Positions 1 to 64,000 of a DNA stretch of 64,000 nt are shown here, piece after piece. The notes beneath the pieces were generated by a model. That model searched no databases. It was not told the origin of the DNA and saw only the letters and a list, made by a program, of their open reading frames with translations. This DNA is from Bacteroidales bacterium. GTDB taxonomy: Bacteria > Bacteroidota > Bacteroidia > Bacteroidales > F082. How positions within the stretch are numbered: position 1 is the stretch's first letter; each line of letters starts with the position of its first letter. The DNA is taken from contig JAZOQH010000015.1 of NCBI GenBank assembly GCA_045655965.1, forward strand, positions 212 to 64,211, in the 5' to 3' direction. Position numbers and translations under genes: made by a program.

Positions 1-44
1 GCGCGACAGAACTGCGTTTTATTTTTCTGTCGCACCTTCGGCAC

Positions 45-252
45 TCTTTTTTAGAATTTAAGAATTTTAGAACCTCAGAAGAACTTTGAACTCTGAACTC
101 TAAACTCTAAACTCTAAACTCTGAACTCTGAACCTTTTTAGTAATGAAGTGATGTGAAAAACACCTCTAATTCCTCTAAACCCCAAATTCCTGAACTCCT
201 GAATTCTTAAAAAATCTTCTAAAATTCTAAAGTTCTAGAATTCTAAAGTTCT
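45..252. repeat. degenerate 7-8-nt tandem arrays
   Basis: ttagaatt/taagaatt…, (g/a)aactct x7, cctctaat/tcctctaa…, ttctaaag/ttctagaa. Seen directly. Confidence 0.9.
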
Positions 253-1935
253 TCATTTAATCCATTTCCCCGTTTCCACTTCTTTCATTCCTAATTCCTC
301 ATTCCTCATTCCTAATTTCCAGATGTAGGTTCCACTTTGCCAATTTGAAGCATCTATTGAAGTGACGTCGTCGGTTATTTCCTGTTCGTGGATTTTTCTT
401 CCGTTTATGTCATAGACAGATAAAACAGCATTTCTCAAACCTGTTCTGATATTCATCACATCTCCGCCTGGGTTTGGGTAAGCGACAGCAAGATGAAGAT
501 TATGAGCGTGAGCTTCTTCTATGTTATCAGGATTAAATGCTGATGCGGGGAATTTGGTAACAAAACCGGCTCCAATATCAGATTCCAATTCATCTGCATC
601 ATGAATAATGATAATTCCACCATCGTTGGTCGATTTCAATGTTATCACTCTATCAAGAGCATCATTATTTAAACCATAATACATAGTTGAAATAGTATCT
701 AAATTACTATCAAGACGTTCTATCACAATCCATGAATCTAAATTTGAATAATAACCTTGATGCAATGTATATGTATAGTATATTGAACCGTCATCTTTTA
801 AATCTACAGCATGTCTAAAACAGGACATATCCCACTCATCAGTTCCTCTTTCATTATAATTTACTACTTCAAGATAATCAGAAGTCTCATTTATGTCATC
901 ATTTATCTCATATAAACGACAGTCTTCATCATGATGTGGATTGTCTGGATTTCTCTTTTGAGTTGTAAGATATGTGGTATTGTGATCACTTCTTTTAATG
1001 GTTATATTGTATAACATATCATTGATTAAACAATTAGGTCCTTTCAAGTATCTTTCTCTGATAAAGTTGAAGTCCTTGTCAAAATATCTAGCAGTTCCTT
1101 GTACATAATAATCGTCGCTATTTCCGTTGCCGCTATCATAAAATATGTAATAAGAATCAGTTGCTACAAAATGATTTGTACGATAGTATAGCGGTTGTCC
1201 GCCTCTGTTGTTACTTTTGGATGGACCAACTGTTCCAATACATTTTTTATTTAGTATTTCGCCATTAAAATTCATTCTGAAAAAGAATAATGTATCGTCT
1301 CCTTGAAATGGACTTTTATAACTTTCACATTTCCAATAAGCACCTACAATATCACCTTCATCTTCAAAAGCAGAGAATAAGAAAATGTTTCCGCTAAATG
1401 AATTTGGCAGAAGTTGCCACTCATATTCATTTTGAGCCTCGTATGTATCTATAGGCCAACTATTGTCATATACTTCTTCTACATTCAACTGACTATCTAA
1501 CTTTAACAACGACAAATTTGCGTCTGAGGGAGGATTGTCGTAATTCTTAAAATGATTGTAGGAACCAGGAGTGTGTTCAGGACTATATGTCGTAAGTAAA
1601 TAAAATTTATTTTCTTTCTTAAAAACATATTGCGCTGAACCTGATATACAATATCCTGGACGGAAAAAGTTTTTCTGCGTAAGCAGATTGCCATCCTCAG
1701 AGAACAACATGATGCCTGGACTTTCTGAATAATAATATTCTTGTGAACTGCCTCTGCTTAGATATATGGCTGGCGCAAGTAAATCGCCATTAGACAATTC
1801 CATAAATCCTATTGGAGAATAATATTCCGTATTCTGTTCACCATACTCCGACATCCACTGCCATTCCCATTCTTGTGAAAAGACATTGTTTCCAAATAAG
1901 AAAACCAATGTAATAAAAGTAACGAATCTTCTCAT
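253..1935 (-). CDS. secreted protein of unknown function with T9SS C-terminal sorting domain
   Basis: 560-aa ORF with an N-terminal signal peptide (MRRFVTFITLVFLFGNNVFSQ). The C-terminus AYPNPGGDVMNI...VYDINGRKI...SGTYIWKL matches the T9SS CTD pattern seen on four other ORFs here. Confidence 0.75.
   Translation of the reverse strand: MRRFVTFITLVFLFGNNVFSQEWEWQWMSEYGEQNTEYYSPIGFMELSNGDLLAPAIYLSRGSSQEYYYSESPGIMLFSEDGNLLTQKNFFRPGYCISGSAQYVFKKENKFYLLTTYSPEHTPGSYNHFKNYDNPPSDANLSLLKLDSQLNVEEVYDNSWPIDTYEAQNEYEWQLLPNSFSGNIFLFSAFEDEGDIVGAYWKCESYKSPFQGDDTLFFFRMNFNGEILNKKCIGTVGPSKSNNRGGQPLYYRTNHFVATDSYYIFYDSGNGNSDDYYVQGTARYFDKDFNFIRERYLKGPNCLINDMLYNITIKRSDHNTTYLTTQKRNPDNPHHDEDCRLYEINDDINETSDYLEVVNYNERGTDEWDMSCFRHAVDLKDDGSIYYTYTLHQGYYSNLDSWIVIERLDSNLDTISTMYYGLNNDALDRVITLKSTNDGGIIIIHDADELESDIGAGFVTKFPASAFNPDNIEEAHAHNLHLAVAYPNPGGDVMNIRTGLRNAVLSVYDINGRKIHEQEITDDVTSIDASNWQSGTYIWKLGMRNEELGMKEVETGKWIK
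286..320. repeat. 7-nt array (attccta/attcctc) inside the 3' end of CDS 253..1935
   Basis: cattcctaattcctcattcctcattcctaatttcc, translated on the minus strand as GMRNEELGM inside the T9SS CTD. Confidence 0.85.
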
Positions 1936-2113
1936 AAAGTTAAATTTAAAACAGTTTCAAAAGTAGAGAAAATAAAACAGTAAAAAATGGCAATTTTGTG
2001 CTCATCCACTTTTTTATTTAGAATACATTGTAATAATCAACAACTTACAAAACACTCATCCATATATTTATTTTTCGCTTAGGGATAAAAATGTGGATTT
2101 TGATGGTGAAATA

Positions 2114-3460
2114 CTAAATTTTACTTCTTACAAAAGGCATCAAAACTTCTTTTATCTCTACAATTCCTGTCTTCTTGATGACAGAACTACGGCTTTTGCT
2201 TATAGTGTTTTCTCGGAAATTAAGTATAAATGCCATTTCCTTTATACGGAAAGAGAAGAACGACAGCAGACAAATCGCCTGTTCTGTTTCTGACAATTCC
2301 GGATATGCTTGTTTAAACTTTTCAAATGCGTCGGGATAAATTGAATTGAATTCTTTTAAAATACTTTGATAAGCATCTGCACTTCGATTACGATATATGG
2401 TGTACACATGTTGCTTCAATGCATTGTTTGTGACATCTTTTTGCTTATCAATCTTTATACTGTTTCGTTTTGTGTTTAAAATCAATGTCAATACAAACAA
2501 TAATATTACAACTGAAGTGATGACAATTAAAGATGTCAATCTTTTTTGTTTGCTTTTCTGTTGGAGTAATGCATTAAGTTTGGCTGCACGTTCTAATTTA
2601 TACTCATCATATTGCTTGGTCAACATAGTAACATTACTGACTCTATCCGATTCAGCTTCGACATAAGTACTATAATATTTCTGACAAAAAGCCACACTGT
2701 CGGCATTATTTTCTTTTTCATAAATCCTGGCAAGCAACGACATGATTGAACCTCTTGTAACTTGGTCAACATTATCCACCTCAAGGATTTTCAACAGATA
2801 AGGCTTTGACTCCATACAATATGGAGAATGATACATTGTTATTCCTAAACCAACAGAGTCGTTTTTGGTATCTATTCCACGTCTGTCTTTAAAGAATATC
2901 AACTCTTGATTAACATATATACATGAGTCGTATTGTTTTTGTTGATAATAGATGAGCGACCTTGTTTTTTGAGCGTCATAATATGTATGTAAATTATCAG
3001 AAGTAGTGTCTAAATAATGAGAAGCGAGTTGATTATAATATTTGGCAGAATCAATTTCATCAACAACGATATAAGCAGAAGCCAATCTTGTTAACAACAC
3101 CGACATCCATAATGAATCTTTTACCATCTGCTGATAATATAATGCCATCTTATCAGTGTCGATTTTTACAGATGAAGCCAACATTCTATCTAAAATATGA
3201 GACATCTGATAATAAGTCTTTGAGACAAGAAATTTTTCTTCCTTACTCATTTCTTCTGGCAGATTTTCCAACAATTTCGCTATCTCTATAAATTTTGTAA
3301 ACGCTTCAGATATGCTATCGTTCGACGACAAATTATAAGCCTCATCATAATACCTCATCGCAGTCTGATATGCTTCAGACTCCTCTTGATTTTTATTATC
3401 ACAAAAAGTGAATGTAATCGACAAAACAACAATAGATATTATGATAAAGAATCTTTTCAT
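2114..3460 (-). CDS. TPR-like lipoprotein/membrane regulator with C-terminal LuxR-type HTH
   Basis: 448-aa ORF with a lipoprotein-like signal (…TFTFCDNK), helical-repeat Y/L-rich N-terminal half and one TM helix (LIVITSVVILLFVLTLIL). The C-terminal LSETEQAICLLSFFSFRIKEMAFILNFRENTISKSRSSVIKK resembles a LuxR/GerE HTH. Confidence 0.6.
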   Translation of the reverse strand: MKRFFIIISIVVLSITFTFCDNKNQEESEAYQTAMRYYDEAYNLSSNDSISEAFTKFIEIAKLLENLPEEMSKEEKFLVSKTYYQMSHILDRMLASSVKIDTDKMALYYQQMVKDSLWMSVLLTRLASAYIVVDEIDSAKYYNQLASHYLDTTSDNLHTYYDAQKTRSLIYYQQKQYDSCIYVNQELIFFKDRRGIDTKNDSVGLGITMYHSPYCMESKPYLLKILEVDNVDQVTRGSIMSLLARIYEKENNADSVAFCQKYYSTYVEAESDRVSNVTMLTKQYDEYKLERAAKLNALLQQKSKQKRLTSLIVITSVVILLFVLTLILNTKRNSIKIDKQKDVTNNALKQHVYTIYRNRSADAYQSILKEFNSIYPDAFEKFKQAYPELSETEQAICLLSFFSFRIKEMAFILNFRENTISKSRSSVIKKTGIVEIKEVLMPFVRSKI

Positions 3461-3488: not shown

Positions 3489-3496
3489 TAAAAAAA

Positions 3497-3566
3497 GACA
3501 ACAAGACTACAGGACTACAAGACAACAAGTTTTTTGATACAAGAAATTCAGAAACTCAGAAAATTT
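3497..3566. repeat. 8-nt arrays (gacaacaa/gactacag family, then aattcaga/aactcaga)
   Basis: gacaacaagactacaggactacaagacaacaag … aagaaattcagaaactcagaaaattt. Confidence 0.85.
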
Positions 3567-3568
3567 AA

Positions 3569-3620
3569 AGAGACGCTTCAATGCTTGTTTATTTTTAAGG
3601 AAACATTGAAACGTCTCTAC
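3569..3620 (-). repeat. palindromic element, GTAGAGACG…CGTCT family, copy 1
   Basis: The reverse complement gtagagacgtttcaatgtttccttaaaaataaacaagcattgaagcgtctct matches the copy at 49180-49230: the first 30 nt are identical and the rest is similar. It has a 14-bp stem. Confidence 0.85.
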
Positions 3621-3627
3621 TAAGGTT

Positions 3628-3702
3628 GTTGAGCTAAAGCTTTTGAACTAAGAACTTTCAATTTAGCTGAACGCTGATAGCTGACAGCTAATTTTCAATT
3701 TC
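3628..3702. repeat. 8-nt degenerate array abutting the YfcC stop codon
   Basis: gagctaaa gcttttga actaagaa ctttcaat ttagctga acgctgat agctgaca gctaattt tcaatttc. Confidence 0.8.
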
Positions 3703-3703: not shown

Positions 3704-5326
3704 CTAAAATCCTTCAAGTGGCATCGTCACTGTTGGGATTAAGAGCAAGCCTCCTAATATTATCATCAACAATATGAATTTCCAAGCCCACTTGAACCAT
3801 TTCTGATATGGCACTCTTGCCACGCCAAGCGCTGCTATGAGAACTCCGGATGTCGGTGTTATCATATTGGTGAATCCGTCGCCGAACTGGAACGCCATCA
3901 CCGTTGCCTGACGGCAGACTCCAATCAAATCGCTGAACGGAGCCATGATAGGCATTGTAATCGCTGCCTTTGCCGAACCTGAAGGAATAACGACATTAAC
4001 AATAGTCTGTATCGCATACATGATTTCTACCGATGCAATCTTGCCTAAATCGGTCATTGATTTTGAAAGTCCATACAATATAGTATCAATAATGCCGCCT
4101 TCCTGAAGTATTATCACGATACCGCCAGCAAGACCCACAACAACTGCAGCCGACAAAATATCGCTCATGCCTTCAATGAAAAGTCGTGCTATGTCGCTGG
4201 CTGTCTTTCCTATCGCCAAACCGCTCGCAATACCCATAACGAGGAATAATGTAGCGATTTCCATCACGTACCATCCATATCCCATAACACCGACAATAAG
4301 ATATATTATCGTATAAAGTAAAATCAAAAGTATGAAGTTATGGACTGTCTTTCTCAACGACAATGGTCCTAATATCGCGAAGATTGCTGTCAAAATTGGA
4401 ATGAAAGGCGCTGTCATCGACGAGTTGCCTACACTCAATGTGGTTGTCGGATAATAGAAAGAGAAAATCGTCATTGCGACGAGAATCGCGGCATAAACAT
4501 ACCATGACTGTTTTGTCTTTATCGCTTCATGTTCTTGCTGTCCGTCCACGCTATGAGTGCGCCAGTATGCATCTTCTTCATACATTATCGATGACATAGG
4601 ATTTTTCTTGACCTTCTTTGCATACAATAACACGAATGCTATCGTAATTATATTTATCACAACCCAGCAGAAAACTCTGTAGCCGATTCCTGAGAAGAGT
4701 GGCACATCCGCGATTCCTTGAGCGATGCCAATGGTAAAAGGATTCAATATCGCTCCAGCAAAACCGACATGGGCTGCTACATAAACCATGCAGACCCCTA
4801 CAATAGAATCGTAGCCCATAGATATAGCCAATGGAATTACGATAATGATAAATGCTATACATTCCTCGCTCATTCCAAAGACAGCCCCGAACAAACTAAA
4901 GAGTAGCATTATCAATGTAATGATGATATTATCTACACCGAGTGTCTTAAATATCTTTATGTTTTCCAGTTTTCGTGTAAATCGCAGGAAAGAGAATATT
5001 CCCATATCGATGGCGTGGCTCTTATTCATTATCCAGAAAGCTCCGCCTATTATCAGTATGAAAACAATGATAGAACTTTGTTTTTCAAATCCTTTAAAAA
5101 GCGCCGAGAATATCTGCCATGTCTGTGGCTCGGAATGATATTCCTCTTGATATTGTTCTGGCAATTGGTCTTGATAATAGAAGTTTAATTCTGTTTCTTC
5201 GACGCCATTTTCTATAATATTTTCTTTAATGTAATATCCAGGTTCTACAAACCATGTCATCACAGCTGCTATTACTATGATAAAGAATACTATAACAAAT
5301 GTGTGTGGGACTTTTCTCTGCGCCAT
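3704..5326 (-). CDS. YfcC / DcuC-like (C4-dicarboxylate anaerobic carrier family) membrane transporter
   Basis: Polytopic membrane ORF. I prefer the ATG at 5326 (MAQRKVPHTFVIVFFIIVIAAVMTWFV, a typical YfcC N-terminus) over the longest ORF start at 5440. A TAnnTTTG box lies 18 nt upstream of that ATG. Confidence 0.75.
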   Translation of the reverse strand: MAQRKVPHTFVIVFFIIVIAAVMTWFVEPGYYIKENIIENGVEETELNFYYQDQLPEQYQEEYHSEPQTWQIFSALFKGFEKQSSIIVFILIIGGAFWIMNKSHAIDMGIFSFLRFTRKLENIKIFKTLGVDNIIITLIMLLFSLFGAVFGMSEECIAFIIIVIPLAISMGYDSIVGVCMVYVAAHVGFAGAILNPFTIGIAQGIADVPLFSGIGYRVFCWVVINIITIAFVLLYAKKVKKNPMSSIMYEEDAYWRTHSVDGQQEHEAIKTKQSWYVYAAILVAMTIFSFYYPTTTLSVGNSSMTAPFIPILTAIFAILGPLSLRKTVHNFILLILLYTIIYLIVGVMGYGWYVMEIATLFLVMGIASGLAIGKTASDIARLFIEGMSDILSAAVVVGLAGGIVIILQEGGIIDTILYGLSKSMTDLGKIASVEIMYAIQTIVNVVIPSGSAKAAITMPIMAPFSDLIGVCRQATVMAFQFGDGFTNMITPTSGVLIAALGVARVPYQKWFKWAWKFILLMIILGGLLLIPTVTMPLEGF

Positions 5327-5343
5327 ATATTTACATTTTTCTG

Positions 5344-5351
5344 CAAAAATA
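5344..5351 (-). promoter_or_regulatory. -7 box TATTTTTG (minus strand) upstream of the YfcC-like gene
   Basis: The + strand reads caaaaata, 17 nt before the ATG at 5326. Confidence 0.45.
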
Positions 5352-5424
5352 ATGGTTTTATAGAACATTTTTACAAAATCGTTGAAAAATATAGTAAATT
5401 CAAGCTTTCGTAACAATATTATTG

Positions 5425-5432
5425 TATTTTTG
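5425..5432 (+). promoter_or_regulatory. -7 box TATTTTTG upstream of CDS 5467..5982
   Basis: Exact TAnnTTTG, 34 nt before the ATG. Confidence 0.45.
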
Positions 5433-5466
5433 CAGCGCAATATAGTATTTTAAATTTTAGGCAAAG

Positions 5467-10743: not shown

Positions 10744-10788
10744 TAGAAACTCAAAACATAAGAATCTCAAAAAATTCAGATTTTTTTT
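10744..10788. repeat. 8-nt degenerate array (aaactcaa/aatctcaa/aattcaga)
   Basis: Seen directly, downstream of the M6 protease gene and its terminator. Confidence 0.6.
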
Positions 10789-14177: not shown

Positions 14178-14212
14178 ATTAATTTTCAATTTTCAACTTT
14201 CAATTTCATCTT
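14178..14212. repeat. array ttcaattt/tcaacttt spanning the rsmI stop codon
   Basis: ttaattttcaattttcaactttcaatttcatc. The last codons of rsmI (…EIES*) are encoded by it. Confidence 0.85.
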
Positions 14213-18617: not shown

Positions 18618-18626
18618 TAAGTCACA

Positions 18627-37485: not shown

Positions 37486-37486
37486 T

Positions 37487-49172: not shown

Positions 49173-49179
49173 GAATGAA

Positions 49180-49230: not shown

Positions 49231-49280
49231 ATCAATGGTGATTAGTCTTGAAAAAAATATTAACACAAATAAATAACAAA

Positions 49281-50920: not shown

Positions 50921-51078
50921 ATTTTAGTGTAGAGTGTAGAGTTTAGAGTTTAGAGTTTAGAGTAGTTTGATTGTTATTAAGTGTAGAGTTTATAGTGTAT
51001 ATAGAATTCAATAAACTTTCCACTCCCGACTTCCCACTTTAAAACTACTCTACACTCTCCACTATAAACTATAAACAT
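50921..51078. repeat. inverted 7-nt arrays (gtgtaga/gtttaga … tctacac/tataaac), a long imperfect hairpin
   Basis: tagtgtagagtgtagagtttagagtttagagtttagagtagttt … aaactactctacactctccactataaactataaac. Confidence 0.9.
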
Positions 51079-51104: not shown

Positions 51105-53327
51105 ATGAAAAAAACTTTCTTATTAGTAGCCCTCGCTATTTTCTCATTAGTGGGCAAAGTACACGCTGACGAAGGAATGTGGCTTCCTATGTTCGTAGAG
51201 CGTTTGAATTATGTTGACATGGAAAAGATGGGTCTTCAACTCACTCCTGAAGAACTCTACAGCATCAACAACAGCAGCTTAAAAGACGCTATCGTTGGTT
51301 TATCAGAAGGCGCAAGACCACGCGGTTTCTTCTGCACAGGTGAAATCGTTTCAGGCAAAGGCCTCATGTTCACCAACCACCACTGCGGTTACAACTCAAT
51401 CCAAAAACTCAGCACCGTTGAACACGACTATTTGACAGACGGTTTCTGGGCAAAAGACTTCAGCGAAGAACTTCCAGCAGAAGGCATCTCAGCATCTTTC
51501 TTAGTACGTATGGAAGACGTAACAGCTGAAATCTTCGGCGTTTTGAACGACACAATGAATTGGGACGAACGTAATGCTGCTATCGCTGCTAAAGCTAAAG
51601 AACTCGAAGCTGCAGCATCAGAAGATGGCAAATACAACCCAATCATCAAAGGTTTCTTCGAAGGCAACGAATATTATATGTTCGTATATAAAGTTTACAC
51701 AGACGTTCGTCTCGTTGGTACACCTCCTTCATCAATCGGTAAGTTCGGTGGCGACACTGACAACTGGATGTGGCCACGTCACACAGGCGACTTCTCAATC
51801 TTCCGCGTTTATGCTGGCGCTGATGGTGAACCTGCTGCTTACGCACCAGAAAACAAACCTTTAAATCCTAAACATCATCTTCCAGTTAGCTTAGACGGCG
51901 TTCAACAAGATGACTTCACAATGATTTGGGGCTTCCCTGGAACAACAGAACGTTACATGACATCTTTCGGCATCGACTATAACGTTGAATCATTCTACCC
52001 AACAATCCACGACATCTTCAAACTCCAAACAGATGTTATGGACGAATTCATGCAAAAAGACGCTTCTGTCAACATCATGTATGCTGACGACAAAGCTGGT
52101 CTCGCTAACACATGGAAAAACTTCGAAGGCCAAATGTTAATGCTCCGCAAAAACAAAGTAGCTGAAAGAAAAGCTGAACTCGAAGCTCAATTCACAGAAT
52201 GGGTTAACGCTGACGCAGCACGCGTTGAAGAATACGGCAACGTATTGAACACATTAGCTGAAAACTACGCAATGGCAGCTGAATTCACACCTTCTATCTA
52301 TTATCCTAACTTCGTTACACAAACTGGCGCTATCGCTATTGCTGCAGAATTCGCTCAATACGTAGCAGCAGCTCAAGGTAAAGATAAAGAAGCTATCGCA
52401 GCAGCTGAAGAAGCTCTCAAAGCTATCGACGCTGAAGCTTATTTCGCAGAAACATACAAAGCTTTAGAAGACAAGACTTTAGTTGAAATGTTAAAATTAT
52501 ACTACAACACTTTCAACGCTGAAGCAAATCCAGAATTCTACAACTTAGTTGAAAAAGAATACAAAGGTGACGTTGTTGCTTTAGCTAACGACATCTTAGA
52601 AAACTCTATCTTCGCATCAGCTGAATCAATCAATGCTTTCATCGCAAAACCTAACGCTAAGAAAGTTGAAAAAGACCCAGCTTACGTTGTATTAAACGCA
52701 ATGATAAGCCATATGATGGGCAACCTCGCTCCTTACCGTGCAGCAATGAAAGTTATCGACGAAAACAATCACTTATTCGTTAAAGGTATTCGCGAGTTCT
52801 ACGCTGAAACACAACCAGAAAAGAGCCTCTATCCAGACGCTAACTCATCATTACGTATGAGCTACGGTTCTGTTCAAGATTACCAACCAGCTGACGCTGT
52901 TCACTATGACTACGTATGTACAGCTAACGGTATCCTCGAAAAATATGTTCCTGGTGACTATGAATTCGACGTTCCACAAAGACTCCTCGACCTCATCGCT
53001 GCTAAAGACTTCGGTCAATATGCTGACGAAAACGGCGAGTTGATCGTTTGCTTCCTTTCAACAAACGACATCACTGGCGGTAACTCAGGTAGCCCAATCA
53101 TGAACGCTAGAGGCGAACTCATCGGCCTCGCATTCGACGGCAACTGGGAAGCTATGAGCGGCGACATCAACTTCGAACCAACATTACAACGTACAATCAA
53201 TGTTGACGCACGTTACGTATTGTTCGTAATCGACAAATTCGCTGGCGCAACAAACCTCATCGACGAATTGACAATCGTTAAAAGCGAACCTCAAGTTGAA
53301 ACAACAGAAGAAGTAGTAGCTGAATAA
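51105..53327 (+). CDS. S46-family dipeptidyl-peptidase (DPP7/DPP11 type)
   Basis: Signal peptide followed by DEGMWLP, then TNHHCG (His), a later Asp region, and GGNSGSP (Ser), the S46 hallmarks. Confidence 0.9.
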   Translation: MKKTFLLVALAIFSLVGKVHADEGMWLPMFVERLNYVDMEKMGLQLTPEELYSINNSSLKDAIVGLSEGARPRGFFCTGEIVSGKGLMFTNHHCGYNSIQKLSTVEHDYLTDGFWAKDFSEELPAEGISASFLVRMEDVTAEIFGVLNDTMNWDERNAAIAAKAKELEAAASEDGKYNPIIKGFFEGNEYYMFVYKVYTDVRLVGTPPSSIGKFGGDTDNWMWPRHTGDFSIFRVYAGADGEPAAYAPENKPLNPKHHLPVSLDGVQQDDFTMIWGFPGTTERYMTSFGIDYNVESFYPTIHDIFKLQTDVMDEFMQKDASVNIMYADDKAGLANTWKNFEGQMLMLRKNKVAERKAELEAQFTEWVNADAARVEEYGNVLNTLAENYAMAAEFTPSIYYPNFVTQTGAIAIAAEFAQYVAAAQGKDKEAIAAAEEALKAIDAEAYFAETYKALEDKTLVEMLKLYYNTFNAEANPEFYNLVEKEYKGDVVALANDILENSIFASAESINAFIAKPNAKKVEKDPAYVVLNAMISHMMGNLAPYRAAMKVIDENNHLFVKGIREFYAETQPEKSLYPDANSSLRMSYGSVQDYQPADAVHYDYVCTANGILEKYVPGDYEFDVPQRLLDLIAAKDFGQYADENGELIVCFLSTNDITGGNSGSPIMNARGELIGLAFDGNWEAMSGDINFEPTLQRTINVDARYVLFVIDKFAGATNLIDELTIVKSEPQVETTEEVVAE

Positions 53328-53328: not shown

Positions 53329-53364
53329 TGAAATTCAGAAGTTCAAAATCTCAGAACTTCAGCA
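53329..53364. repeat. 8-nt array (aaattcag/aagttcaa/aatctcag/aacttcag)
   Basis: Seen directly after the S46 peptidase stop. Confidence 0.8.
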
Positions 53365-53370
53365 ATATGG

Positions 53371-57077: not shown

Positions 57078-57250
57078 TTTGAAATTCAGAATCTCAAAAT
57101 CTCAGAACCTCAGATTTTTTTCTGGGGTTCTTTTTTTTAAATCTCAGAAATTCAGAATCTCAAAAACTCAGAACCTCAGATTTTTTGAAGTCCTGAGATT
57201 CTGAGTTTTTTATTTCTAAAATTCTAGAGTTCTAAATTTCTAGATTTCTC
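57078..57250. repeat. arrays (aattcaga/atctcaaa/atctcaga/acctcaga; ctgagatt; ttctagag/ttctaaat) between nhaA and the GH110-like gene
   Basis: Seen directly. The last 8 codons of the GH110-like ORF (EKSRNLEL*) are encoded by the array. Confidence 0.9.
57101..57138. terminator. bidirectional hairpin module (gaacctcaga…tctggggttc), copy 2
   Basis: The reverse complement aaaaaaaagaaccccagaaaaaaatctgaggttctgag matches 40939-40977 except for an indel of about 2 nt. Confidence 0.6.
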
Positions 57251-59011
57251 CAAAAGTATTTCTTTCTGATTCCAATGGAATGGTTTGTAGTCGTTGTTTC
57301 TCGTCACCTTGTTCTTACGGAAAATCAAGCCATCGACGGATTTAGCATATAACAAAGGCTTGTCGAAAGTAATGAAATGATTCTTCTCGATGACGATAGC
57401 GTCTTTCTTTCCGCCATGAAAATACAAGAGCTGATTCTCCAGATCTGGTATCTCCGGATATATAGAGATGACCGCATTGGTGAATTGGAACATATTTGTC
57501 AGAGCGTTGACGAATGTGTTATTTTTTATTAACAAATCACGGACAGCACCCGATTCATACCAGCCGTTACAATCTCCACATAATAAAATGGCTGTCCCTG
57601 AAGTATGGTCGAAGAGATTATCTTCGCACACCGTTCTCAATGGCGAACTGAACAGAGCGCCTCTCGCCCTGTTGTTTCTCACTATATTATGACTGAAAAC
57701 GACTTCCGGAGTCCAGCTGAGATTCTCTATTCCGAATGAAGTGTCAGCATTGATTTCTTTTGGAAGTTCATCTTCAAATGTGATGATAAATGCTTTCGCT
57801 CCTTTAACGGTTTCCTTGTCGTAAGGTCTTATTTCTTTAATTATGTTAATATTTTTTAACATTTCCATTGTCTTGCTTTTCACGAAGCAGACACTGTCGC
57901 CAGCATCGCCCCAAGCGAATCCCCACGCCTGACCATGTTCATAACTACAAATCAAGGTGTTGTCGTTGCGACGTTCTTTCACTTTAAGATAAATGCCGTG
58001 AACATTGATGGCATCGTCCATCATACCTTCGTAGAGACCATTTTCGGAACGTATCATTCCTTTGCATTGAGAGAAATGAGTTGCATCGGCCTGGGTTGTG
58101 AAATAACGAGCGTCATTTTCTTTAAGACACACATTAAAACGATTCAAGCGGATATCGCAGCAACGTTGTGCTAGAAGTCCCATCCCTTCAGCATAATGAA
58201 CCGTGACATTATTAATGTATGTGTCGTTGCTATGATCGAGGAAGATGCCCGGAGCAGGACGCCACCATGTGCGCATCGCCACCATCGTCCCAGGTTTAAG
58301 ACGTTTGTCTTTCCAGTTAGGAGCATGAAGCAAACGATTGCCCACCTCTTCTACCTGCTTGGTGTCAATCCATAAATCGCTGGTGTTATATACGATATGA
58401 CGAGACTCCTTTTCAAAAGCGATGCCTGTATTTTGCTGATATTTCCATCCTTCGCCGTAAGTCTCGAAGACGCCGTTCTCGTTGATACGATAGTTAACCC
58501 AAGGTTCAACGCGAAAAGTGATACCTTCGTTTTCATCATTATTTATCACCTCGACCTGAGCGATATGAGGATTTTCAAAATCGATGGAGAAGTTTTTCAA
58601 TGTGACATTAGAGGAGCCGACGACGGCAAGGGGCAGCATCTGTCCGTGAAAGATAAACTCCGAACCCTTGCCGTCGAGGGTGAGATTATCCCATTTTTCC
58701 AGACAAATACCTACTACCTTAGGTTGATTTTGATCGTGGTTAGAGACGTAATATTCGCGTTGCAGAGCATCGTGAGGATAGAAGTCGTAGCGACCCTTCT
58801 TGAGTTTCACGACCACCTCGTCATCTTCTTCGACAGAAGACTTTATCATATCAAGAATCGCGTTGAGACGAGAGGCGTTGTCTTTTCTGTTCTCATCAGG
58901 CAAGAAAAAATAAGGCGCTCCTGAAATATCGACCACAACTTTCTTCGCCTCAAGCGACAAAGAGAACATAAATACTATTATAAATATTAAGGTTTTTATG
59001 TATTTGTTCAT
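57224..59011 (-). CDS. right-handed parallel beta-helix glycosidase, probably GH110 alpha-1,3-galactosidase-like
   Basis: 595 aa with a signal peptide. REYYVSNHDQNQPKVVGI…LTLDGKGSEFIFHG…LKNFSIDFENPHIAQVEV matches my memory of Bacteroides GH110 enzymes. Pectate-lyase-like repeats follow (NRARGALF…). Confidence 0.55.
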   Translation of the reverse strand: MNKYIKTLIFIIVFMFSLSLEAKKVVVDISGAPYFFLPDENRKDNASRLNAILDMIKSSVEEDDEVVVKLKKGRYDFYPHDALQREYYVSNHDQNQPKVVGICLEKWDNLTLDGKGSEFIFHGQMLPLAVVGSSNVTLKNFSIDFENPHIAQVEVINNDENEGITFRVEPWVNYRINENGVFETYGEGWKYQQNTGIAFEKESRHIVYNTSDLWIDTKQVEEVGNRLLHAPNWKDKRLKPGTMVAMRTWWRPAPGIFLDHSNDTYINNVTVHYAEGMGLLAQRCCDIRLNRFNVCLKENDARYFTTQADATHFSQCKGMIRSENGLYEGMMDDAINVHGIYLKVKERRNDNTLICSYEHGQAWGFAWGDAGDSVCFVKSKTMEMLKNINIIKEIRPYDKETVKGAKAFIITFEDELPKEINADTSFGIENLSWTPEVVFSHNIVRNNRARGALFSSPLRTVCEDNLFDHTSGTAILLCGDCNGWYESGAVRDLLIKNNTFVNALTNMFQFTNAVISIYPEIPDLENQLLYFHGGKKDAIVIEKNHFITFDKPLLYAKSVDGLIFRKNKVTRNNDYKPFHWNQKEILLEKSRNLEL

Positions 59012-60317: not shown

Positions 60318-60380
60318 TAATTAGAAATGTGAAATTAGGAATTAGGAATTAAAATTAAATTCTCGTTCCTAATTCCTAAT
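60318..60380. repeat. inverted arrays (aattagga x3 … ttcctaat x2)
   Basis: Seen directly after the sdaA stop. Confidence 0.85.
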
Positions 60381-60387: not shown

Positions 60388-60957
60388 ATGAAAAGACTAT
60401 TTCTAGCTATACCGATAAAAACTACCGACAATGATTTCGTGCCGCTCCTCGACGGACTGAAACGTCAGCTGGCTCACGAGAAAAGAATCAACTGGGTAAA
60501 ACCTAGTCATATCCATCTCACATTGAAATTCATAGGCGACACTCATCCAGATGAGATACCTAAGATCATCGATGAGATTGGCGAGATGGTAAAGAAACAC
60601 AAGAGTTTCACGATGGACTTCAACAGAACAGGTATCTTCGGCAGCCGATATGCGCCAAGAGTGTTATGGCTCGGGATGCAGAACACACCACAAGAACTCC
60701 TCGACTTGGAAGAAGACACTCTCACCTCCTTCGACAAACTAGGATTCCTCCGCGACAGACAAAATTTCGTCCCACACATCACATTAGGACGTATCAAGGA
60801 GTTATGCGAGAAACAGTATTTCCAGAAAATCGTAGCTGGAATAGAACAGAAGTCTTACATACGACAAGAAGTCAAAGAGATAATATTATTCCAAAGCTTC
60901 TTACGCCCTGAAGGCGCAGTATATAAAGTGATAAAGAAGTTTGGGTTAGAGGGTTGA
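60388..60957 (+). CDS. thpR: RNA 2',3'-cyclic phosphodiesterase (2H family, LigT/ThpR)
   Basis: 189 aa with two HxTx motifs (HLTLKF, HITLGR) at the typical spacing. Confidence 0.85.
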   Translation: MKRLFLAIPIKTTDNDFVPLLDGLKRQLAHEKRINWVKPSHIHLTLKFIGDTHPDEIPKIIDEIGEMVKKHKSFTMDFNRTGIFGSRYAPRVLWLGMQNTPQELLDLEEDTLTSFDKLGFLRDRQNFVPHITLGRIKELCEKQYFQKIVAGIEQKSYIRQEVKEIILFQSFLRPEGAVYKVIKKFGLEG

Positions 60958-60981
60958 GATATCTCCCTCTAGTCCCTCTAA
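60945..60981. repeat. inverted words ttagaggg/ttgag … ccctctag/tccctcta spanning the thpR stop
   Basis: Seen directly. It encodes the terminal …GLEG*. Confidence 0.75.
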
Positions 60982-61193: not shown

Positions 61194-62414
61194 ATGGATT
61201 CTTCAGTATTAAAGTTTTCCGACATCGTTGCAGCACGTAGCACATTGAGAGGCGTTGCAAAATTAACTTCTATAAGTCATTCTAAATCATTCTCTCAAAT
61301 GTCTGGCGCCAACATCTTCATGAAATTGGAGAATATGCAGACGACAGGCGCTTTCAAGGTAAGAGGTGCGTATAACAAATTAGCCAATTTATCACCTGAA
61401 GAAAGAGCGAAGGGCGTTGTGGCAGCATCAGCGGGCAACCACGCACAAGGTGTAGCTTTCTCAGCAACAAAACTCGGCATGCAAAGCACTATCTTCATGC
61501 CTATCTTCACTCCTCCTTTGAAGGTTCTCGCAACAAAAGGCTACGGCGCTAACGTGGTGCTCACTGGTGAATCATTCGACGATTCTTTCCTCGCATCACA
61601 GGAATACACCAAACAACATGATGCTTCATACATACATCCTTTCAACGACCCGCTCATCATCGCTGGTCAAGGCACTATTGGATTGGAGATTTACGAACAA
61701 CAACCTGATGTTGACGCTGTCATCGTGCCTATCGGCGGCGGCGGTCTCATCGCAGGTATCGCGATGGCGATAAAAGAGATGAATCCTAAGGTAAGAGTAA
61801 TAGGCGTCAACGCTGCTGGCGCTGCTTCTATGGTGGCATCAAGAAACGCCAACGAAATCGTCTCTCTCCCTTCTGTATCGACAATCGCTGACGGTATCGC
61901 AGTGAAGACTCCTGGCACACTCACCTTCGAAATCATCCAGAAATATGTCGATGACATCGTAAGTGTGACAGACACTGAGATTGCACACGCTGCATATCTC
62001 CTGCTCCAACGTGGCAAGTTGCTCGCTGAGCCAGCAGGCGTCACCTCGGTGGCAGCAGCGCTCTTCAACAAAGTAGATCTCAAAGGAAAGAACGTCGTTC
62101 CTGTCGTCAGCGGCGGTAACATCAATATGCGCCTCCTTGAACAGATAATAGAAAAAGGCATGGTGGAAGAAGGTCTCAGAGCATCTATCAGACTCATCAT
62201 CCCTGACCAGTCAGGCGAACTCAAGAGAGTGCTCTCTATATTCGAAGGTCTTAAGGTCAACATCTACGACATCAAACACGAGCGCTCCTTAAGCAGAGTG
62301 GAAGTCGGAAAATCTTTGGTGACAATAAGCATGAACCTCCAAGATCAGAAGCAACTCAACACCATCATGGCAATGCTCCAAGAACACGGAATCAATTGCG
62401 AAATAGCATCTTGA
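61194..62414 (+). CDS. threonine ammonia-lyase (threonine dehydratase), short form with one C-terminal ACT-like domain
   Basis: PLP lysine context KLENMQTTGAFKVRGA, SAGNHAQG and PIGGGGLIAG, plus a regulatory tail of about 80 aa. Confidence 0.9.
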   Translation: MDSSVLKFSDIVAARSTLRGVAKLTSISHSKSFSQMSGANIFMKLENMQTTGAFKVRGAYNKLANLSPEERAKGVVAASAGNHAQGVAFSATKLGMQSTIFMPIFTPPLKVLATKGYGANVVLTGESFDDSFLASQEYTKQHDASYIHPFNDPLIIAGQGTIGLEIYEQQPDVDAVIVPIGGGGLIAGIAMAIKEMNPKVRVIGVNAAGAASMVASRNANEIVSLPSVSTIADGIAVKTPGTLTFEIIQKYVDDIVSVTDTEIAHAAYLLLQRGKLLAEPAGVTSVAAALFNKVDLKGKNVVPVVSGGNINMRLLEQIIEKGMVEEGLRASIRLIIPDQSGELKRVLSIFEGLKVNIYDIKHERSLSRVEVGKSLVTISMNLQDQKQLNTIMAMLQEHGINCEIAS

Positions 62415-62453
62415 TAGAACTTTAGAATTCTAGAACTCTAGAATTTTAGAAAA
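62415..62453. repeat. 8-nt array (tagaactt/tagaattc/tagaactc/tagaattt)
   Basis: Seen directly after the threonine dehydratase stop. Confidence 0.85.
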
Positions 62454-62491: not shown

Positions 62492-62565
62492 GTTTTTTAA
62501 AATATTAGTTTATAACTTAGCATTCTGAAAATAAACGCATTAATAAACCTTAAAATCATACTGCC

Positions 62566-63009
62566 ATGTGGAGAGCAATCAAACGAATCTTCTTTATTGC
62601 ACTAGCGTTTGCATTGATGATAGTCTTTCATCGATACAGCGTAAACAAATTCGACAAAACAGACAAGACTGTTAATTTAATGGAGAAAATATCTACATCT
62701 TACAAAGACTACTCACTATCGAGTTTTAAAGTTGAGAAAGACAAGATGATAGATTATGCGAAAATCCTGCATCAGAAAGAACTTGCAGAAGGCAAGACCG
62801 ATGACGAGTTTGAAGGATTTACCATCGTCTCTTATTGTTGGAAGGCATTGGATGAATATAAAGATGAAATCAATGTCACCAATAGTCTCTCGTTGTTTCT
62901 ACCTTTGATAGCAGCAATTATGATATTAGTAGCGATTATAGTCTCGATACGACTCGGACTAAGCGCAATTCGTAAACTTGATTTTGACAACGACGCAACA
63001 GCATATTAA
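62566..63009 (+). CDS. hypothetical small membrane protein (two terminal TM helices around a soluble domain of about 85 aa)
   Basis: 147-aa ORF with TM helices IFFIALAFALMIVF and LFLPLIAAIMILVAIIVSI. Its stop codon overlaps the Shine-Dalgarno site of the next ORF. Confidence 0.6.
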   Translation: MWRAIKRIFFIALAFALMIVFHRYSVNKFDKTDKTVNLMEKISTSYKDYSLSSFKVEKDKMIDYAKILHQKELAEGKTDDEFEGFTIVSYCWKALDEYKDEINVTNSLSLFLPLIAAIMILVAIIVSIRLGLSAIRKLDFDNDATAY

Positions 63010-63021
63010 GGAGGATTGGTT

Positions 63022-64000
63022 ATGGCAAATTATAGAGATGCAAAAAAGATTAGTTTCTCCCAAGCGGAAGAAAATCGTTTTCGTCAGTTGTTCAACGATT
63101 GGGCGAAGTCAATAAAAGGTTATAACCGCAACAATTTAGGCAACCAGCTGAAGATTGTAGAAGTATGGGACACTCCTATCTATCGCGGATTGCTTAAGAC
63201 ACAATATGACAACCGTACGCTTAAACAAACATACGAAAGAATTGGTGGAAGAACGTTCCCTCCAAGGACCATAAGCAGCGAGTCGCAGATAAACCGCTGG
63301 TCTTTGGCGTCGCCTCCTAAAGATTTTACCAACAATGAGAAATCGTATTTGGTACCTGGTTCACAGTATATTGACGGATGTCATACTTGTCATGCCACAG
63401 GCAAGGTCAATTGTAGCAGATGTAGCGGTAAAGGTACGATTCTAGTTCCATATACTGTAAAACAACCTTGTCCGAAATGTGGCGGCAGAGGTTCTGTTCA
63501 AGTTACTAATAGAGAGCTTGAACAATATAACACCAGCGAAGGGTTGAAAGCTCGTTACGTAGATAAAACAAGGACCGTGAGTTGCTCCAGTTGTAGTGGC
63601 AGAGGATATCATGAAGTTCAATCGTATAGAGAAGAGTCCTGCCCAACATGTCACGGTACAGGCAAAGTGATTTGCGGCACTTGTGGAGGCGACAGAAATC
63701 TTGTAAGATACTGGCAGCTGCATTGCAGTCATTATACCAAGACTTATGTGGATTATCGTTTCCCTGCACAGGTTCCTTCTGACGAAATCCCAAAGATTAT
63801 AAAGTTGTTCAACAACAGCACTCCATGGCGCGTGATGGAGAAGATGAATGTCGACAAAGAGAATTTCGACAAAAACGACTTGGCATCACGTCCTATAGTT
63901 GGAAGCATGTTGTCGAGATTACCAAATAGAGTTGAGCATCTTACGCATACCGTTGTCTGTTTCAATCTTTTAGAATCGTGTGAATGTGAAGCAAAGACCG
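63022..64000 (+). CDS. protein with six DnaJ-type CxxCxGxG zinc-finger motifs (no J domain), 3' partial
   Basis: I translated this frame by hand. It is open from the ATG at 63022 to the window end (326 codons) and was not in the supplied ORF track because it is incomplete. Motifs: CHTCHATGKV, CSRCSGKGT, CPKCGGRGS, CSSCSGRGY, CPTCHGTGKV, CGTCGGDRN (63379-63690). AAGGAGG lies 7 nt upstream of the ATG. Confidence 0.75.
   Translation, partial: MANYRDAKKISFSQAEENRFRQLFNDWAKSIKGYNRNNLGNQLKIVEVWDTPIYRGLLKTQYDNRTLKQTYERIGGRTFPPRTISSESQINRWSLASPPKDFTNNEKSYLVPGSQYIDGCHTCHATGKVNCSRCSGKGTILVPYTVKQPCPKCGGRGSVQVTNRELEQYNTSEGLKARYVDKTRTVSCSSCSGRGYHEVQSYREESCPTCHGTGKVICGTCGGDRNLVRYWQLHCSHYTKTYVDYRFPAQVPSDEIPKIIKLFNNSTPWRVMEKMNVDKENFDKNDLASRPIVGSMLSRLPNRVEHLTHTVVCFNLLESCECEAKT

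Follow-up and report, generated by a model that had tools for sequence, protein, structure and literature searches.

Why do tandem arrays of 7- and 8-nt words crowd the ends of genes in this stretch of DNA (64,000 nt, here called the window) from an uncultured gut Bacteroidales, and what are they? The period itself, claimed in an earlier note that listed 20 loci, is borne out: TRF called arrays with a 7- or 8-nt unit at 16-17 of these, and a lag scan of the window counted 14 segments for lag 7 and 19 for lag 8, compared to one at lag 6 and none at lags 4, 5, 10, 11 and 13. Twenty dinucleotide shuffles yielded no periodic segments at a stricter threshold. Tandem periodicity is restricted to lags 7 and 8. 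The listed loci are genuine and mostly called by TRF, but four are borderline: 10744-10788, 49160-49180 and 60945-60981 amount to a plain hairpin or to two or three loose units, and 18621-18650 has three units. The list was also incomplete, lacking at least nine in-frame ORF arrays and a promoter-linked family. The features are as follows, with L numbers denoting sequences used for comparison.

45..252, unstranded: run of array modules (TTTTAGAA, GAACTCT x7.6, CCTCTAAT-type, TTCTAAAG x4.5) in the 3' flank of 253..1935(-).
279..320, minus: AATTAGG/AATGAGG array coding part of the C-terminal tail (peptide KLGMRNEELGMKE) of the T9SS-sorted protein 253..1935.
3495..3531, minus: 35-nt (CTTGTNGT)4CTT on the gene strand with A-tract/T-tract flanks (TRF), with TATCTTTG, the -7 box of gene 2114..3460, ~8 nt downstream of its end.
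3540..3702, unstranded: TCAGAAAC words, GTAG-tagged REP-like hairpin (3567-3620) and TTGAACT/TAGCTGA/TTTCAAT words, reaching the stop codon of 3704..5440(-).
10744..10788, unstranded: loose TCAGAA-type words between T-tracts, downstream of terminator 10818-10851; borderline, no TRF call.
14178..14212, minus: GTTGAAA/ATTGAAA operon-spacer array overlapping the stop of 14193..14894, ~15 nt from the next ATG.
17405..17508, plus: GACTAAAG-type array and inverted CTTTAGTC arm, a long hairpin beginning in the stop codon of 15995..17407.
18621..18665, plus: NNAGAGAC words (three units) paired with GGGTCTCTGTGTCTT, a short hairpin 3 nt past the stop of 17550..18617.
19880..19935, plus: TAATGGC/TAAAGGC array including the stop codon of 18683..19882 (TRF, ortholog comparison), then a bidirectional terminator at 19939-19978 with a CTCAGAA/TTCTGAG stem.
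20027..20047, minus: in-frame TCAGAAAC array coding loop KFRNSETH in the T9SS C-terminal domain of 19996..22296 (TRF).
23186..23220, minus: in-frame 35-nt AAGACNAC module in the PIF1-like helicase gene (peptide KSTRQQDDKTTS; TRF).
24780..24863, minus: spacer from histidine-kinase stop to PIF1 start (TRF), with AATTAGG units, a central GC-rich hairpin (GGGCACTGAGCTTGTCGAAGTGC; a REP-like hairpin instead in L001 and L009) and five CTCCATCA units ending 13 nt before the PIF1 ATG.
27376..27390, plus: in-ORF heptamer array of CAACAGT type in the A2M-like gene (comparison with L005).
28965..28997, plus: in-frame AGACAAC x4.7 in the A2M-like gene (TRF).
30220..30288, plus: in-frame CAACAGT x2.9 and CAAAAGA x3.9 (TRF); present, shorter or absent in orthologs, with 24- to 33-nt differences.
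31627..31661, plus: in-frame 35-nt AAGACNAC module (KTTRPQDYKTTS; TRF); L005 has 1.5 units and a REP-like hairpin here, frame kept.
32299..32374, unstranded: GTAGAGT words right after the A2M stop, and TCAGAATC array coding the acyltransferase C-terminal tail KTQNLKTSESQKNF; other word families in relatives.
32760..32845, minus: REP-like hairpin (peptide CRDVTPVAS) fused to a AAGACTAC module, both in frame in an acyltransferase loop.
33345..33379, minus: in-frame 35-nt AAGACNAC module in acyltransferase loop 1; AAGTCACA or AAGCCGCA units in relatives.
37137..37625, plus: ~490-nt mosaic from the S8 peptidase stop codon to the leuS promoter (TRF, fold): an AATTAGG array (including the stop codon), a self-complementary TTCTAGAG array and Flavo-1 RNA (37304-37394), then a GGATTTGA array, a CCTAATT array, a REP-like hairpin (37484-37542) and CTGAAATC and CCTCAATT arrays.
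40839..40984, unstranded: convergent region past the leuS terminator, with a TTGAACT array, inverted arm and TCAGAA-word terminator hairpins (TRF, fold); unit numbers and contents differ in relatives.
44191..44226, minus: CTAAAGG/CTAAAGA array between the stop of 44227..46377 and terminator 44156-44194 (TRF).
46390..46427, minus: unstructured GTTGAAA/ATTGAAA operon-spacer array overlapping the PcrB stop, 12 nt before the DPP-IV gene ATG.
48085..48117, plus: in-frame NNAGAGAC octamer array in a HemN-like gene (DEETQRRKDAES; TRF, lag scan).
49160..49232, plus: three AATTAGG-type units at a gene end, joined to a GTAG REP-like hairpin (49180-49232).
50921..51078, plus: GTAGAGT/TTAGAGT array and inverted ACTCTAC/CTATAAA arms, a long hairpin 3 nt past a stop codon; L004 and L005 have REP-like hairpins instead.
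53329..53366, plus: TCAGAA-type array that separates the stop of 51105..53327 from a canonical terminator (TRF).
57078..57250, unstranded: convergent region with two TCAGAAnC arrays, two terminators of the same words and, as the C-terminus of 57224..59011(-), a TAGAAnTn array (TRF).
60318..60380, plus: AATTAGG array from a stop codon and inverted CCTAATT arm, 7 nt before the next ATG (TRF, fold).
60945..60981, plus: short TAGAGGG/CCCTCTA hairpin across the stop of 60388..60957, a borderline array (direct reading).
62415..62453, plus: self-complementary TAGAAYTN array from the stop of 61194..62414, then a canonical terminator (TRF).

The array words form a small, related vocabulary: 109 arrays fall into 10 clusters plus 4 singletons, whereas 46 singletons arise from random words of matched composition. 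Modules also have a preferred size of ~4.5 units (31-38 nt), and in the window and in 238 kb of unrelated low-GC contigs lengths peak at 35-39 nt (octamers) and 30-34 nt (heptamers). Exact AAGACNAC runs have three units in 24 cases, four in 30 and five in none, and a four-unit mode with zero at five is not predicted by simple slippage. Because one identical heterogeneous 35-mer, AAGACTACAAGACCACAAGACTACAAGACTACAAG, lies in nine distinct flanks and so at nine unrelated loci, modules must be copied in addition to slipping. Arrays gain and lose whole units between relatives; orthologs differ by +7 at 32299, -14 at 37262, -24 at 30260 and -14 at 27376, and unit number in the kinase-PIF1 spacer varies. 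Arrays are homogenised internally, that is, they undergo concerted evolution, and one protein loop carries AAGACTAC, AAGTCACA or AAGCCGCA units depending on the relative. The same gene end can carry different word families in different relatives, as expected from replacement. In-frame tracts vary too: at several sites of the A2M-like gene and in two loops of the acyltransferase, some orthologs have the array tract, some a shorter one and some none, and the C-terminal tail that an array encodes is missing in more distant orthologs. The earlier note had pointed to related genomes as a check, and both presence/absence and array length differences are indeed found at orthologous sites.

Where do these modules lie? 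In the window, none of the six divergent regions carries an array, just as had been claimed; the sole repeat in them is a 2.6-copy TTTGTAAA at 59040-59061. One of 19 divergent regions is occupied in 216 kb of independent low-GC contigs, and the orthologous divergent regions in four relatives are array-free. When the data are pooled, arrays occupy 1/25 divergent compared to 33/129 tandem or convergent regions (Fisher P=0.010), a modest result in that the window (strict calling) gives P=0.09 and the independent contigs 0.08, with only the pooled test reaching 0.01. Convergent regions are most often occupied (3/5 by strict TRF calling, 4/5 by direct reading). Among array-bearing 3' flanks, 11 of 20 have an array that either starts no more than 5 nt past the stop codon or reaches into the C-terminus; starts in or at a stop codon are far more frequent than under uniform placement, and ~15 AAGACNAC modules in other contigs likewise sit at stop codons. 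An exact start at the stop codon, and not anywhere in the 3' UTR, goes beyond a pure selection filter.

The claim that every array follows a stop codon does not hold as worded: in tandem gene pairs it is trivially true, and it hides arrays that are in frame, close to starts or upstream of promoters. In-frame arrays occur within ORFs (20027-20047, 23186-23220, 27376-27390, 28965-28997, 30220-30288, 31627-31661, 32813-32845, 33345-33379 and 48085-48117), and others encode C-termini (279-320, 32333-32369, 37137-37149 and 57224-57250). The arrays nearest to start codons are 7-116 nt away; the operon-spacer arrays 14178-14212 and 46390-46427 end 12-15 nt upstream of starts; in L020, where room allows, an array lies between two promoters. 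The proposed 3' link stands as a positional bias with 3'-UTR placement but not as a rule, given the arrays in protein loops, near starts and between promoters.

The sequences themselves match no described family, as the earlier note held, but their kind is known: published examples are long simple-sequence repeats of 5-11 nt, the heptamer repeats of cyanobacteria, and TAACTGA repeats, which Bacteroidetes have too (PMC4679880). The same kind of positional bias, along with in-gene copies, has already been reported for REP elements (PMC3733652). The arrays resemble LSSR/STRR as short-unit tandem modules, and their mosaic with GTAG REP-like hairpins resembles BIME. We read them as a local version of a type of bacterial repeat already known, rather than as a novel 3'-end signal.

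The account that we consider probable is that tandem modules of LSSR/STRR type, interspersed with GTAG REP-like hairpins to form a BIME-like mosaic, persist where selection lets them. Dispensable DNA, including much of the intergenic sequence and some protein loops, would be built largely of modules of 7-/8-nt words, ~4.5 units (31-38 nt) long, changing by the whole-unit slippage and within-array homogenisation seen between relatives. Whole modules are copied to unrelated sites, as the repeated 35-mer documents, often beside GTAG-tagged REP-like hairpins and Flavo-1 copies; it counts against the account that the window encodes no transposase, RAYT or reverse transcriptase that might move such a non-palindromic 35-nt module. 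Selection may then set where they persist: words containing stop codons would survive only outside ORFs, while stop-free words (AAGACNAC, CAACAGT, TCAGAAnC in sense) would also be tolerated in frame in protein loops and C-termini. Exclusion from promoter cores and 5' UTRs would leave compact divergent regions empty, and modules would be packed right up to stop codons. Many would end up as transcribed 3' UTR between stop codon and terminator, where inverted pairs could form long hairpins, some serving as bidirectional terminator stems. A 3'-end role for the hairpin arms is plausible; from the 3'-UTR position and the hairpins, a secondary role of paired arms in 3'-end formation or protection, as in REP/BIME, is likely. 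Because such a selection filter accounts for the bias, a 3'-targeted generator is not needed.

Alternatively, the arrays may be chiefly functional 3'-end RNA elements, with paired arms under selection as hairpins that terminate transcription or block exonucleases, and unpaired arrays as spacers keeping the ribosome clear of the terminator; repeating a word would then offer a simple route to building and adjusting long stems. Several array hairpins fold far better than shuffles: 17405-17510 (dG -32.5, z -8.5), 37130-37640 (dG -170, z -8.2), 40838-40987 (z -6.0), 50925-51074 (z -5.6) and 60315-60385 (z -5.0). The opposite-polarity arms previously described as frequent are present at about half of the loci, but four loci gave no such fold signal: 46378-46430 (dG 0), 32295-32375 (z -0.5), 24775-24870 and 40-330 (z -1.1). 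Five genes have an array placed after the stop codon and before a canonical terminator, and because of this placement these arrays lie in the 3' UTR. Four bidirectional terminators have TCAGAA-word stems (19939-19978, 40945-40974, 57104-57131 and 57167-57197), convergent regions are the most occupied, and relatives keep the paired-array hairpin at the convergent leuS/T9SS site though unit numbers differ. Against this, about half of the arrays have neither inverted partner nor structure, the same words recur in frame in ORFs, near start codons and ahead of promoters, close relatives have no arrays or unrelated ones in the orthologous 3' UTRs, and canonical terminators are present as well. As the main explanation we find this rather unlikely.

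One family behaves differently. In 13/66 cases a promoter -7 box (Bacteroidetes TAnnTTTG) follows 6-17 nt downstream of the CTTGTNGT module, compared to 2/66 in the opposite orientation and a background of 2%, and the module precedes at least nine different genes; the ATG is usually 14-23 nt past the -7 box (5-49 overall). The module has a constant size, four units plus three nt, and is flanked by an A-tract and a T-tract. This strand-specific, fixed-distance link goes beyond a pure selection filter, and the (CTTGTNGT)4 module at least could be a cis-regulatory DNA element, either a protein-binding array or a promoter-upstream insulator, with other families perhaps protein- or RNA-binding platforms. 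The exact 35-mer conserved at nine loci fits such a role. On the other hand, in-frame copies of this module exist within ORFs and further copies touch stop codons. The remaining word families lack a promoter association (8/79, background 7.9%), no protein is known to bind the module, and the spacing mismatches the usual -33 element. We regard this reading as unlikely.

Could modules instead be made at gene ends? A site-directed generator might be a HUH/RAYT-type nickase acting on TAG-containing words (GTAG, TTAG, CTAG), or break repair at transcription-replication conflicts adding ~4.5 units per event. The excess of arrays starting in or at stop codons, here and in the ~15 AAGACNAC modules elsewhere, and the discrete module size would fit, as would the many words that hold GTAG, TTAG or CTAG. 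AAGACNAC modules are repeatedly fused to GTAGAGACG hairpins, and some words mimic the head of the REP-like hairpin (GTAGAGT at 50921, a site that holds the hairpin itself in relatives; NNAGAGAC at 48085 and 18621). But the window genes include no transposase, RAYT or reverse transcriptase as a candidate enzyme, the hairpins' 5' flanks are inconsistent, several families lack TAG (TTGAACT, GTTGAAA, TCAGAAnC, AAGACAAC), arrays lie deep within ORFs and upstream of promoters, and unit-wise indels suffice for length change. Such a generator is doubtful, more so than a regulatory module.

Arrays inside genes raise the idea of contingency loci, in which unit slippage toggles genes on and off; because 7-/8-nt units are not multiples of three, slippage shifts the frame. 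Indeed, 14 nt (2 x 7) are missing at 27376 compared to L005, and because this array loss splits the A2M-like gene, ORFs 26532..27425 and 27370..32298 are separate here; the gene has five in-ORF arrays. Yet it is intact in all eight relatives, arrays are mostly non-coding, in-ORF arrays are short and degenerate with lower slippage rates expected, and the affected genes are housekeeping rather than surface-variation genes, making this reading highly improbable.

That the arrays are assembly or sequencing artefacts, a concern raised by the source being a metagenome-assembled genome, has a negligible chance of being right: they are shorter than one sequencing read, differ between assemblies in the way that evolution would produce, and recur at orthologous positions in at least 10 independent assemblies, among them NCBI MAGs, ENA assemblies and a Logan assembly.

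As the earlier note had proposed, the window contains tandem arrays of 7- or 8-nt words: TRF calls a period of 7 or 8 at 16-17 of the 20 loci listed there, so that most of the list stands, with four loci (10744, 18621, 49160 and 60945) borderline. In a lag scan of the window, lags 7 and 8 gave 14 and 19 periodic segments, respectively, and lags 4-6, 10, 11 and 13 gave 0-1; 20 dinucleotide-preserving shuffles gave zero periodic segments at a stricter threshold. By TRF and by the lag scan against shuffles, the arrays are head-to-tail units within the 5-11-nt range and longer than expected by chance. Assemblies from NCBI, ENA, and Logan carry the arrays at orthologous positions, so they are not artefacts. 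The DNA around them has a G+C content of ~40%, is ~93% coding, and carries 39 ordinary chromosomal genes, including a methylmalonyl-CoA decarboxylase operon, leuS, T9SS-sorted peptidases, a PIF1-like helicase, and an A2M-like protein. In a search of the whole window at gathering score, no Rfam family covers the arrays; the only matches are one tRNA-Ala and the Flavo-1 RNA motif at 37304-37394.

At least nine arrays, overlooked in the earlier note, lie in frame inside ORFs. Their hosts are the PIF1-like helicase, the A2M-like protein (five arrays), an acyltransferase (two), a HemN-like protein, and a T9SS C-terminal domain, and array-encoded tails end four ORFs. The words used within ORFs are stop-free in the sense direction: AAGACNAC, CAACAGT, CAAAAGA, NNAGAGAC, and TCAGAAnC.

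Array lengths cluster around ~4.5 units, with modes of 35-39 nt for octamers and 30-34 nt for heptamers; the modes are shared by the window and by 238 kb of unrelated low-GC metagenome contigs. Among the matches listed, 24 exact AAGACNAC runs have three units, 30 have four, and none has five; the metagenome (AAGACNAC)3 matches listed from low-GC contigs are nearly always (AAGACNAC)4AAG, often between an A-tract and a T-tract. Among the matches listed, one heterogeneous 35-mer, AAGACTACAAGACCACAAGACTACAAGACTACAAG, has nine distinct sets of flanking sequence. Local slippage could not give rise to this, so entire modules are copied from locus to locus. The words also form a small vocabulary joined by mutational steps: 109 arrays group into 10 clusters and leave 4 singletons, where random words matched in composition leave 46. 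(AAGACNAC)n arrays of 24-136 nt are found as well in high-GC (>0.5) contigs from soil, freshwater, and marine samples (for example L031, L040, L051, L067 and L092), so the octamer is not restricted to Bacteroidales, and the fixed 35-nt form alone is typical of low-GC contigs. A phage origin was considered and rejected: (AAGACNAC)3 is unmatched in viral contigs, and the TTCTAGAG pattern has one match there, in a giant-virus MAG.

The nearest sequences to the window are MAGs labeled 'Bacteroidales bacterium' from yak and other gut samples. The related contig L001 aligns collinearly with 19410-40816 (85-95% identity), and in other relatives identity is mosaic at 70-95%. Orthologous arrays in these relatives differ in copy number and by whole units (+7, -14, and -24 nt, with a second -14 nt difference in the A2M-like gene), as expected of slipped-strand changes. 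In the window, the A2M-like gene (26532-32298) is split into two overlapping ORFs with a junction at 27370-27425; with the related contig L005 as reference, the split corresponds to a 14-nt (2 x 7) loss in an in-ORF heptamer array. The gene is intact in eight relatives, as one ORF of 1900-1949 aa. Bearing on a possible contingency locus are thus one frameshifting 14-nt loss in the window and eight relatives with the gene intact; the split copy may represent a pseudogene, a phase variant, or a polymorphism at the strain level. For strain-level comparison, an exact-protein look-up with the porin gene matched no record.

Ortholog alignments show that in-frame tracts in the A2M-like gene and in the acyltransferase loops are present, shorter, or absent among relatives, and that an array-encoded tail is absent from more distant orthologs. 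In a set of 54 acyltransferase homologs, repeat-encoded peptides of many different kinds are concentrated in these same two loops and at the C-terminus. One loop carries AAGACTAC, AAGTCACA, or AAGCCGCA units depending on the lineage; the units of any one array resemble each other and have diverged between lineages, which is the pattern of concerted evolution. The end of the acyltransferase gene has TCAGAATC units in the window and L001 and GGCTAAAG units in the contigs L006 and L010, and L008 and L009 carry eight additional TGAGGAAC units. Other 3' UTRs have arrays in one genome where another has REP-like hairpins. That relatives carry differing words or elements at the same gene ends implies a turnover that is fast compared with the flanking genes.

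The arrays show a positional bias with respect to genes. The earlier note named six divergent intergenic regions as array-free; they are, and the orthologous regions in four relatives are likewise. When arrays are called strictly, the occupied fraction is 0/6 for the divergent regions of the window and 1/19 for those of independent contigs, compared with 33/129 for other regions (pooled P=0.010; P 0.08-0.09 for the window or the independent contigs alone). Short divergent regions do not account for this depletion; those of the independent contigs are not shorter (median 219 nt) and are still depleted. The single occupied divergent region, in contig L020, has two arrays between its two promoters. 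In the window, arrays begin no more than 5 nt from the stop codon, or overlap the C-terminus, in 11 of the 20 3' flanks that bear them, and the arrays nearest to start codons lie 7-116 nt away. Two unstructured GTTGAAA arrays, at 14178 and 46390, lie in operon spacers, 12-15 nt upstream of start codons; this too was missed in the earlier note.

At five genes the order is stop codon, array, canonical terminator, and several bidirectional terminators have stems of TCAGAA words. A GC hairpin with a T-tract is itself built from array sequence at 19939-19978, 40945-40974, 57104-57131, and 57167-57197; most arrays are unpaired or have no T-tract. Long hairpins formed by arms of opposite polarity had been suggested as a frequent feature, and folding against shuffles bears this out at about half of the loci (z -5 to -8.5) and not at the rest. 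The hairpin-forming pairs probably serve, or were co-opted, as 3'-end structures. A role as back-up stops in all three frames was rejected: stop-abutting arrays close 36/51 frames in sense, 34/51 in antisense, and 33/51 after shuffling, with no enrichment.

One word family is linked to promoters. Read on the opposite strand, the AAGACNAC module is (CTTGTNGT)4CTT with a T-tract after it, and among the matches listed this sequence lies 6-17 nt upstream of a Bacteroidetes -7 box (TAnnTTTG) in 13/66 modules; in the same modules the reverse orientation is near a -7 box in 2/66, and the background is 2%. The following ATG is usually 14-23 nt from the -7 box (5-49 nt overall), and the module with its -7 box precedes at least nine different genes. 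About 15 further AAGACNAC copies abut stop codons in the AAGAC orientation. Promoter adjacency is not a general property of arrays; once the AAGACNAC family is left out, it is seen in 8/79 against a background of 7.9%. The promoter-linked copies are as follows.

Occurrences of (CTTGTNGT)4CTT plus T-tract near a -7 box
3495-3531, window, upstream of the gene at 2114..3460
13 metagenome loci, for example in contigs L052, L074, L089, and L094

The arrays are accompanied by a dispersed hairpin family, GTAG-AGACGYWTCAAT...ATTGAWRCGTCT (GTAG-AGACG...CGTCT), of 46-51 nt, found both in intergenic DNA and in frame in genes.

REP-like hairpins in the window and in related contigs
3567-3620, window, adjoins an array
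37484-37542, window, adjoins an array
49180-49232, window, adjoins an array
32760-32812, window, in frame in an ORF, encoding the peptide SRDVTPVAS
5378, contig L001
6643 and 8982, contig L004
6590 and 14225, contig L005, the copy in the A2M gene lying in frame in the ORF

These hairpins have the features by which GTAG-tagged REPs are defined, namely an imperfect palindrome, a terminal GTAG, and dispersed copies (PMC3733652); the arrays are not palindromes and fall outside the definition. AAGACNAC modules are repeatedly fused to the head of the hairpin, and no constant target site was seen 5' of the hairpins. In some acyltransferase homologs, half of the REP-like hairpin is tandemly duplicated, giving SQNVTPVAS repeats. 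A separate GC-rich hairpin, GGGCACTGAGCTTGTCGAAGTGC, lies at 24815-24850 and alternates in relatives with the REP-like hairpin at the same site; related sequences are translated in frame in the acyltransferase homologs P0058, P0061, and P0092 (…AVPEPVEGKRFDKLSD…, alignment A1). Flavo-1 sits between arrays in the window, and copies occur beside AAGACNAC modules in unrelated contigs (L059 158-241, L131 718-800); given this recurrence, it behaves here as a dispersed member of the repeat mosaic, not as a single-copy sRNA gene.

Two regions are BIME-like in their organization, 3495-3702 and 37137-37625, and they come with the same 3' or intra-operon placement and avoidance of divergent regions. The second, of 490 nt, nests seven arrays, Flavo-1, and one hairpin in a single mosaic whose fold has a z of -8.2. 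The likeness to BIMEs is an analogy of organization; we claim no sequence homology to those of E. coli.

Heptanucleotide STRR repeats were reportedly described in cyanobacteria by Mazel and colleagues in 1990, and in heterocystous cyanobacteria the STRR units are CCCCAGT, TTGGTCA, or CAACAGT. The window arrays do not belong to that group: the relatives are Bacteroidales MAGs, CAACAGT alone is present and only in ORFs, and octamers are as common as heptamers. The earlier note did not recognize the arrays as a described family. This holds for the words, for which a literature search returned unrelated primer matches only, but not for the kind, which is known from LSSR, STRR, and TAACTGA repeats. 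Among the long simple sequence repeats with units of 5-11 nt (LSSR5-11; Mrazek et al, 2007, as summarized in PMC4679880), heptamers are preferred. TAACTGA heptamer repeats (MacGregor, 2015) are also described, and further heptamer repeats have been noted in intergenic regions of Bacteroidetes (PMC4679880). Such repeats share with the window arrays tandem 7-8-nt units, a mostly intergenic location, a patchy distribution across lineages, an expansion thought to occur by slippage, and forward heptamers whose stop codons inevitably terminate ORFs (PMC4679880). Unlike LSSR-type repeats, the window arrays have many related word families instead of one unit, degenerate copies, a discrete ~4.5-unit module, inverted hairpin arms, and, in frame in ORFs, units of lengths not divisible by three. 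Nor are their words locus-specific and derived from resident sequence, as LSSR words would be; they are common to loci and contigs. TAACTGA repeats are found mainly a short way upstream of start codons, the window arrays mainly against stop codons.

Rickettsia palindromic elements, of 100-150 nt, lie in frame at permissive gene sites and add peptide segments; they share in-frame insertion with the elements here, but the latter are tandem arrays of 21-36 nt, in some cases joined to a REP-like hairpin of at least 28 nt. The BrickBuilt MITE of Porphyromonas gingivalis reportedly has direct-repeat units of ~23 nt and promoter activity. It is likewise a Bacteroidales intergenic repeat with a variable number of short direct repeats, but its minisatellite lies inside a MITE, a transposable element with terminal inverted repeats (PMC4596501), whereas the modules have 7-8-nt units and no bounding terminal inverted repeats. 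Borg repeats (PMC9879509) are also fast-evolving tandem repeats of intergenic regions and ORFs, in frame and encoding disordered segments in the latter; they differ in being perfect, with longer units that are divisible by three in ORFs, and in residing on archaeal extrachromosomal elements. REPs lie between unidirectional and convergent ORFs and downstream of ORFs, are rare in divergent regions, and are sometimes found inside genes (PMC3733652). The arrays resemble REPs and BIMEs in this positional bias, in probably being transcribed, in having some in-gene copies, and in forming mosaics with short motifs (PMC3733652, PMC2817692), and the companion hairpins in their GTAG head and palindrome. 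Unlike REPs, the arrays are direct tandem repeats, no RAYT lies among the window ORFs, and the companion hairpins, at 46-51 nt, are longer than classical REPs. The survey in PMC3733652 reported no GTAG repeats from Bacteroidetes. The window arrays are not a categorically new element; what sets them apart within a known kind is that they combine many word families, a discrete 4.5-unit module, and non-triplet units in frame in proteins with REP-like hairpins and Flavo-1 as companions and a link to promoters in one family.

The best-supported account is that the arrays are a lineage-specific tandem-repeat system of the LSSR/STRR kind, shaped by unit slippage and concerted evolution. Whole ~35-nt modules would spread between loci as well, by a copying mechanism that we infer, and would be intermixed with REP-like hairpins in a BIME-like mosaic. 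Their distribution would be set by selection, which would keep modules out of promoter cores and 5' UTRs and bar stop-containing words from ORFs, with stop-free words tolerated in loops and tails. It seems rather unlikely to us that the ~4.5-unit modules are instead a distinct class of ultra-small dispersed elements, copied intact between unrelated sites, also in frame into genes, by a templated or transpositional process, with individual families possibly recruited, notably (CTTGTNGT)4 as an oriented promoter-upstream element and the paired families as 3'-UTR or terminator stems. No transposase, RAYT (Y1 HUH transposase), reverse transcriptase, or other mobilizing gene was found among the 39 ORFs of the window.

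On the preferred account of slippage with module copying, abundant uncultured gut Bacteroidales would make non-coding DNA, and some protein loops and C-termini, from few slippery words. Gene calling would be affected through array-encoded tails and split genes, as would strain typing and assembly, and the system would be a natural one for asking why bacteria favor 7-8-nt units and how 35-nt modules move. The link between the oriented CTTGTNGT module and the promoter core offers a testable hypothesis on Bacteroidetes promoter architecture, and in-frame modules, like Rickettsia palindromic elements and Borg repeats, may be a source of new protein segments.

Some observations concern the window more broadly. 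When 19410-40816 is compared with the related contigs L001, L002, L004, and L005, nucleotide identity jumps between ~70% and ~94% inside single genes and gene order is rearranged, which suggests frequent recombination among these Bacteroidales lineages. LeuRS (37672-40806) is 1044 aa long in the window and L006, and in L009 its length is 955 aa. Residues 642-690 match DUF559 (PF04480) weakly, which suggests an inserted endonuclease-like segment. Finally, 15362-15675, inside the ORF at 14948..15889(-), holds repeats of period 9/18/27 (CTCTTCTTC) that encode an acidic low-complexity protein; the ORF has no Pfam match. This is an ordinary codon-phased repeat, a class apart from the 7-8-nt arrays.
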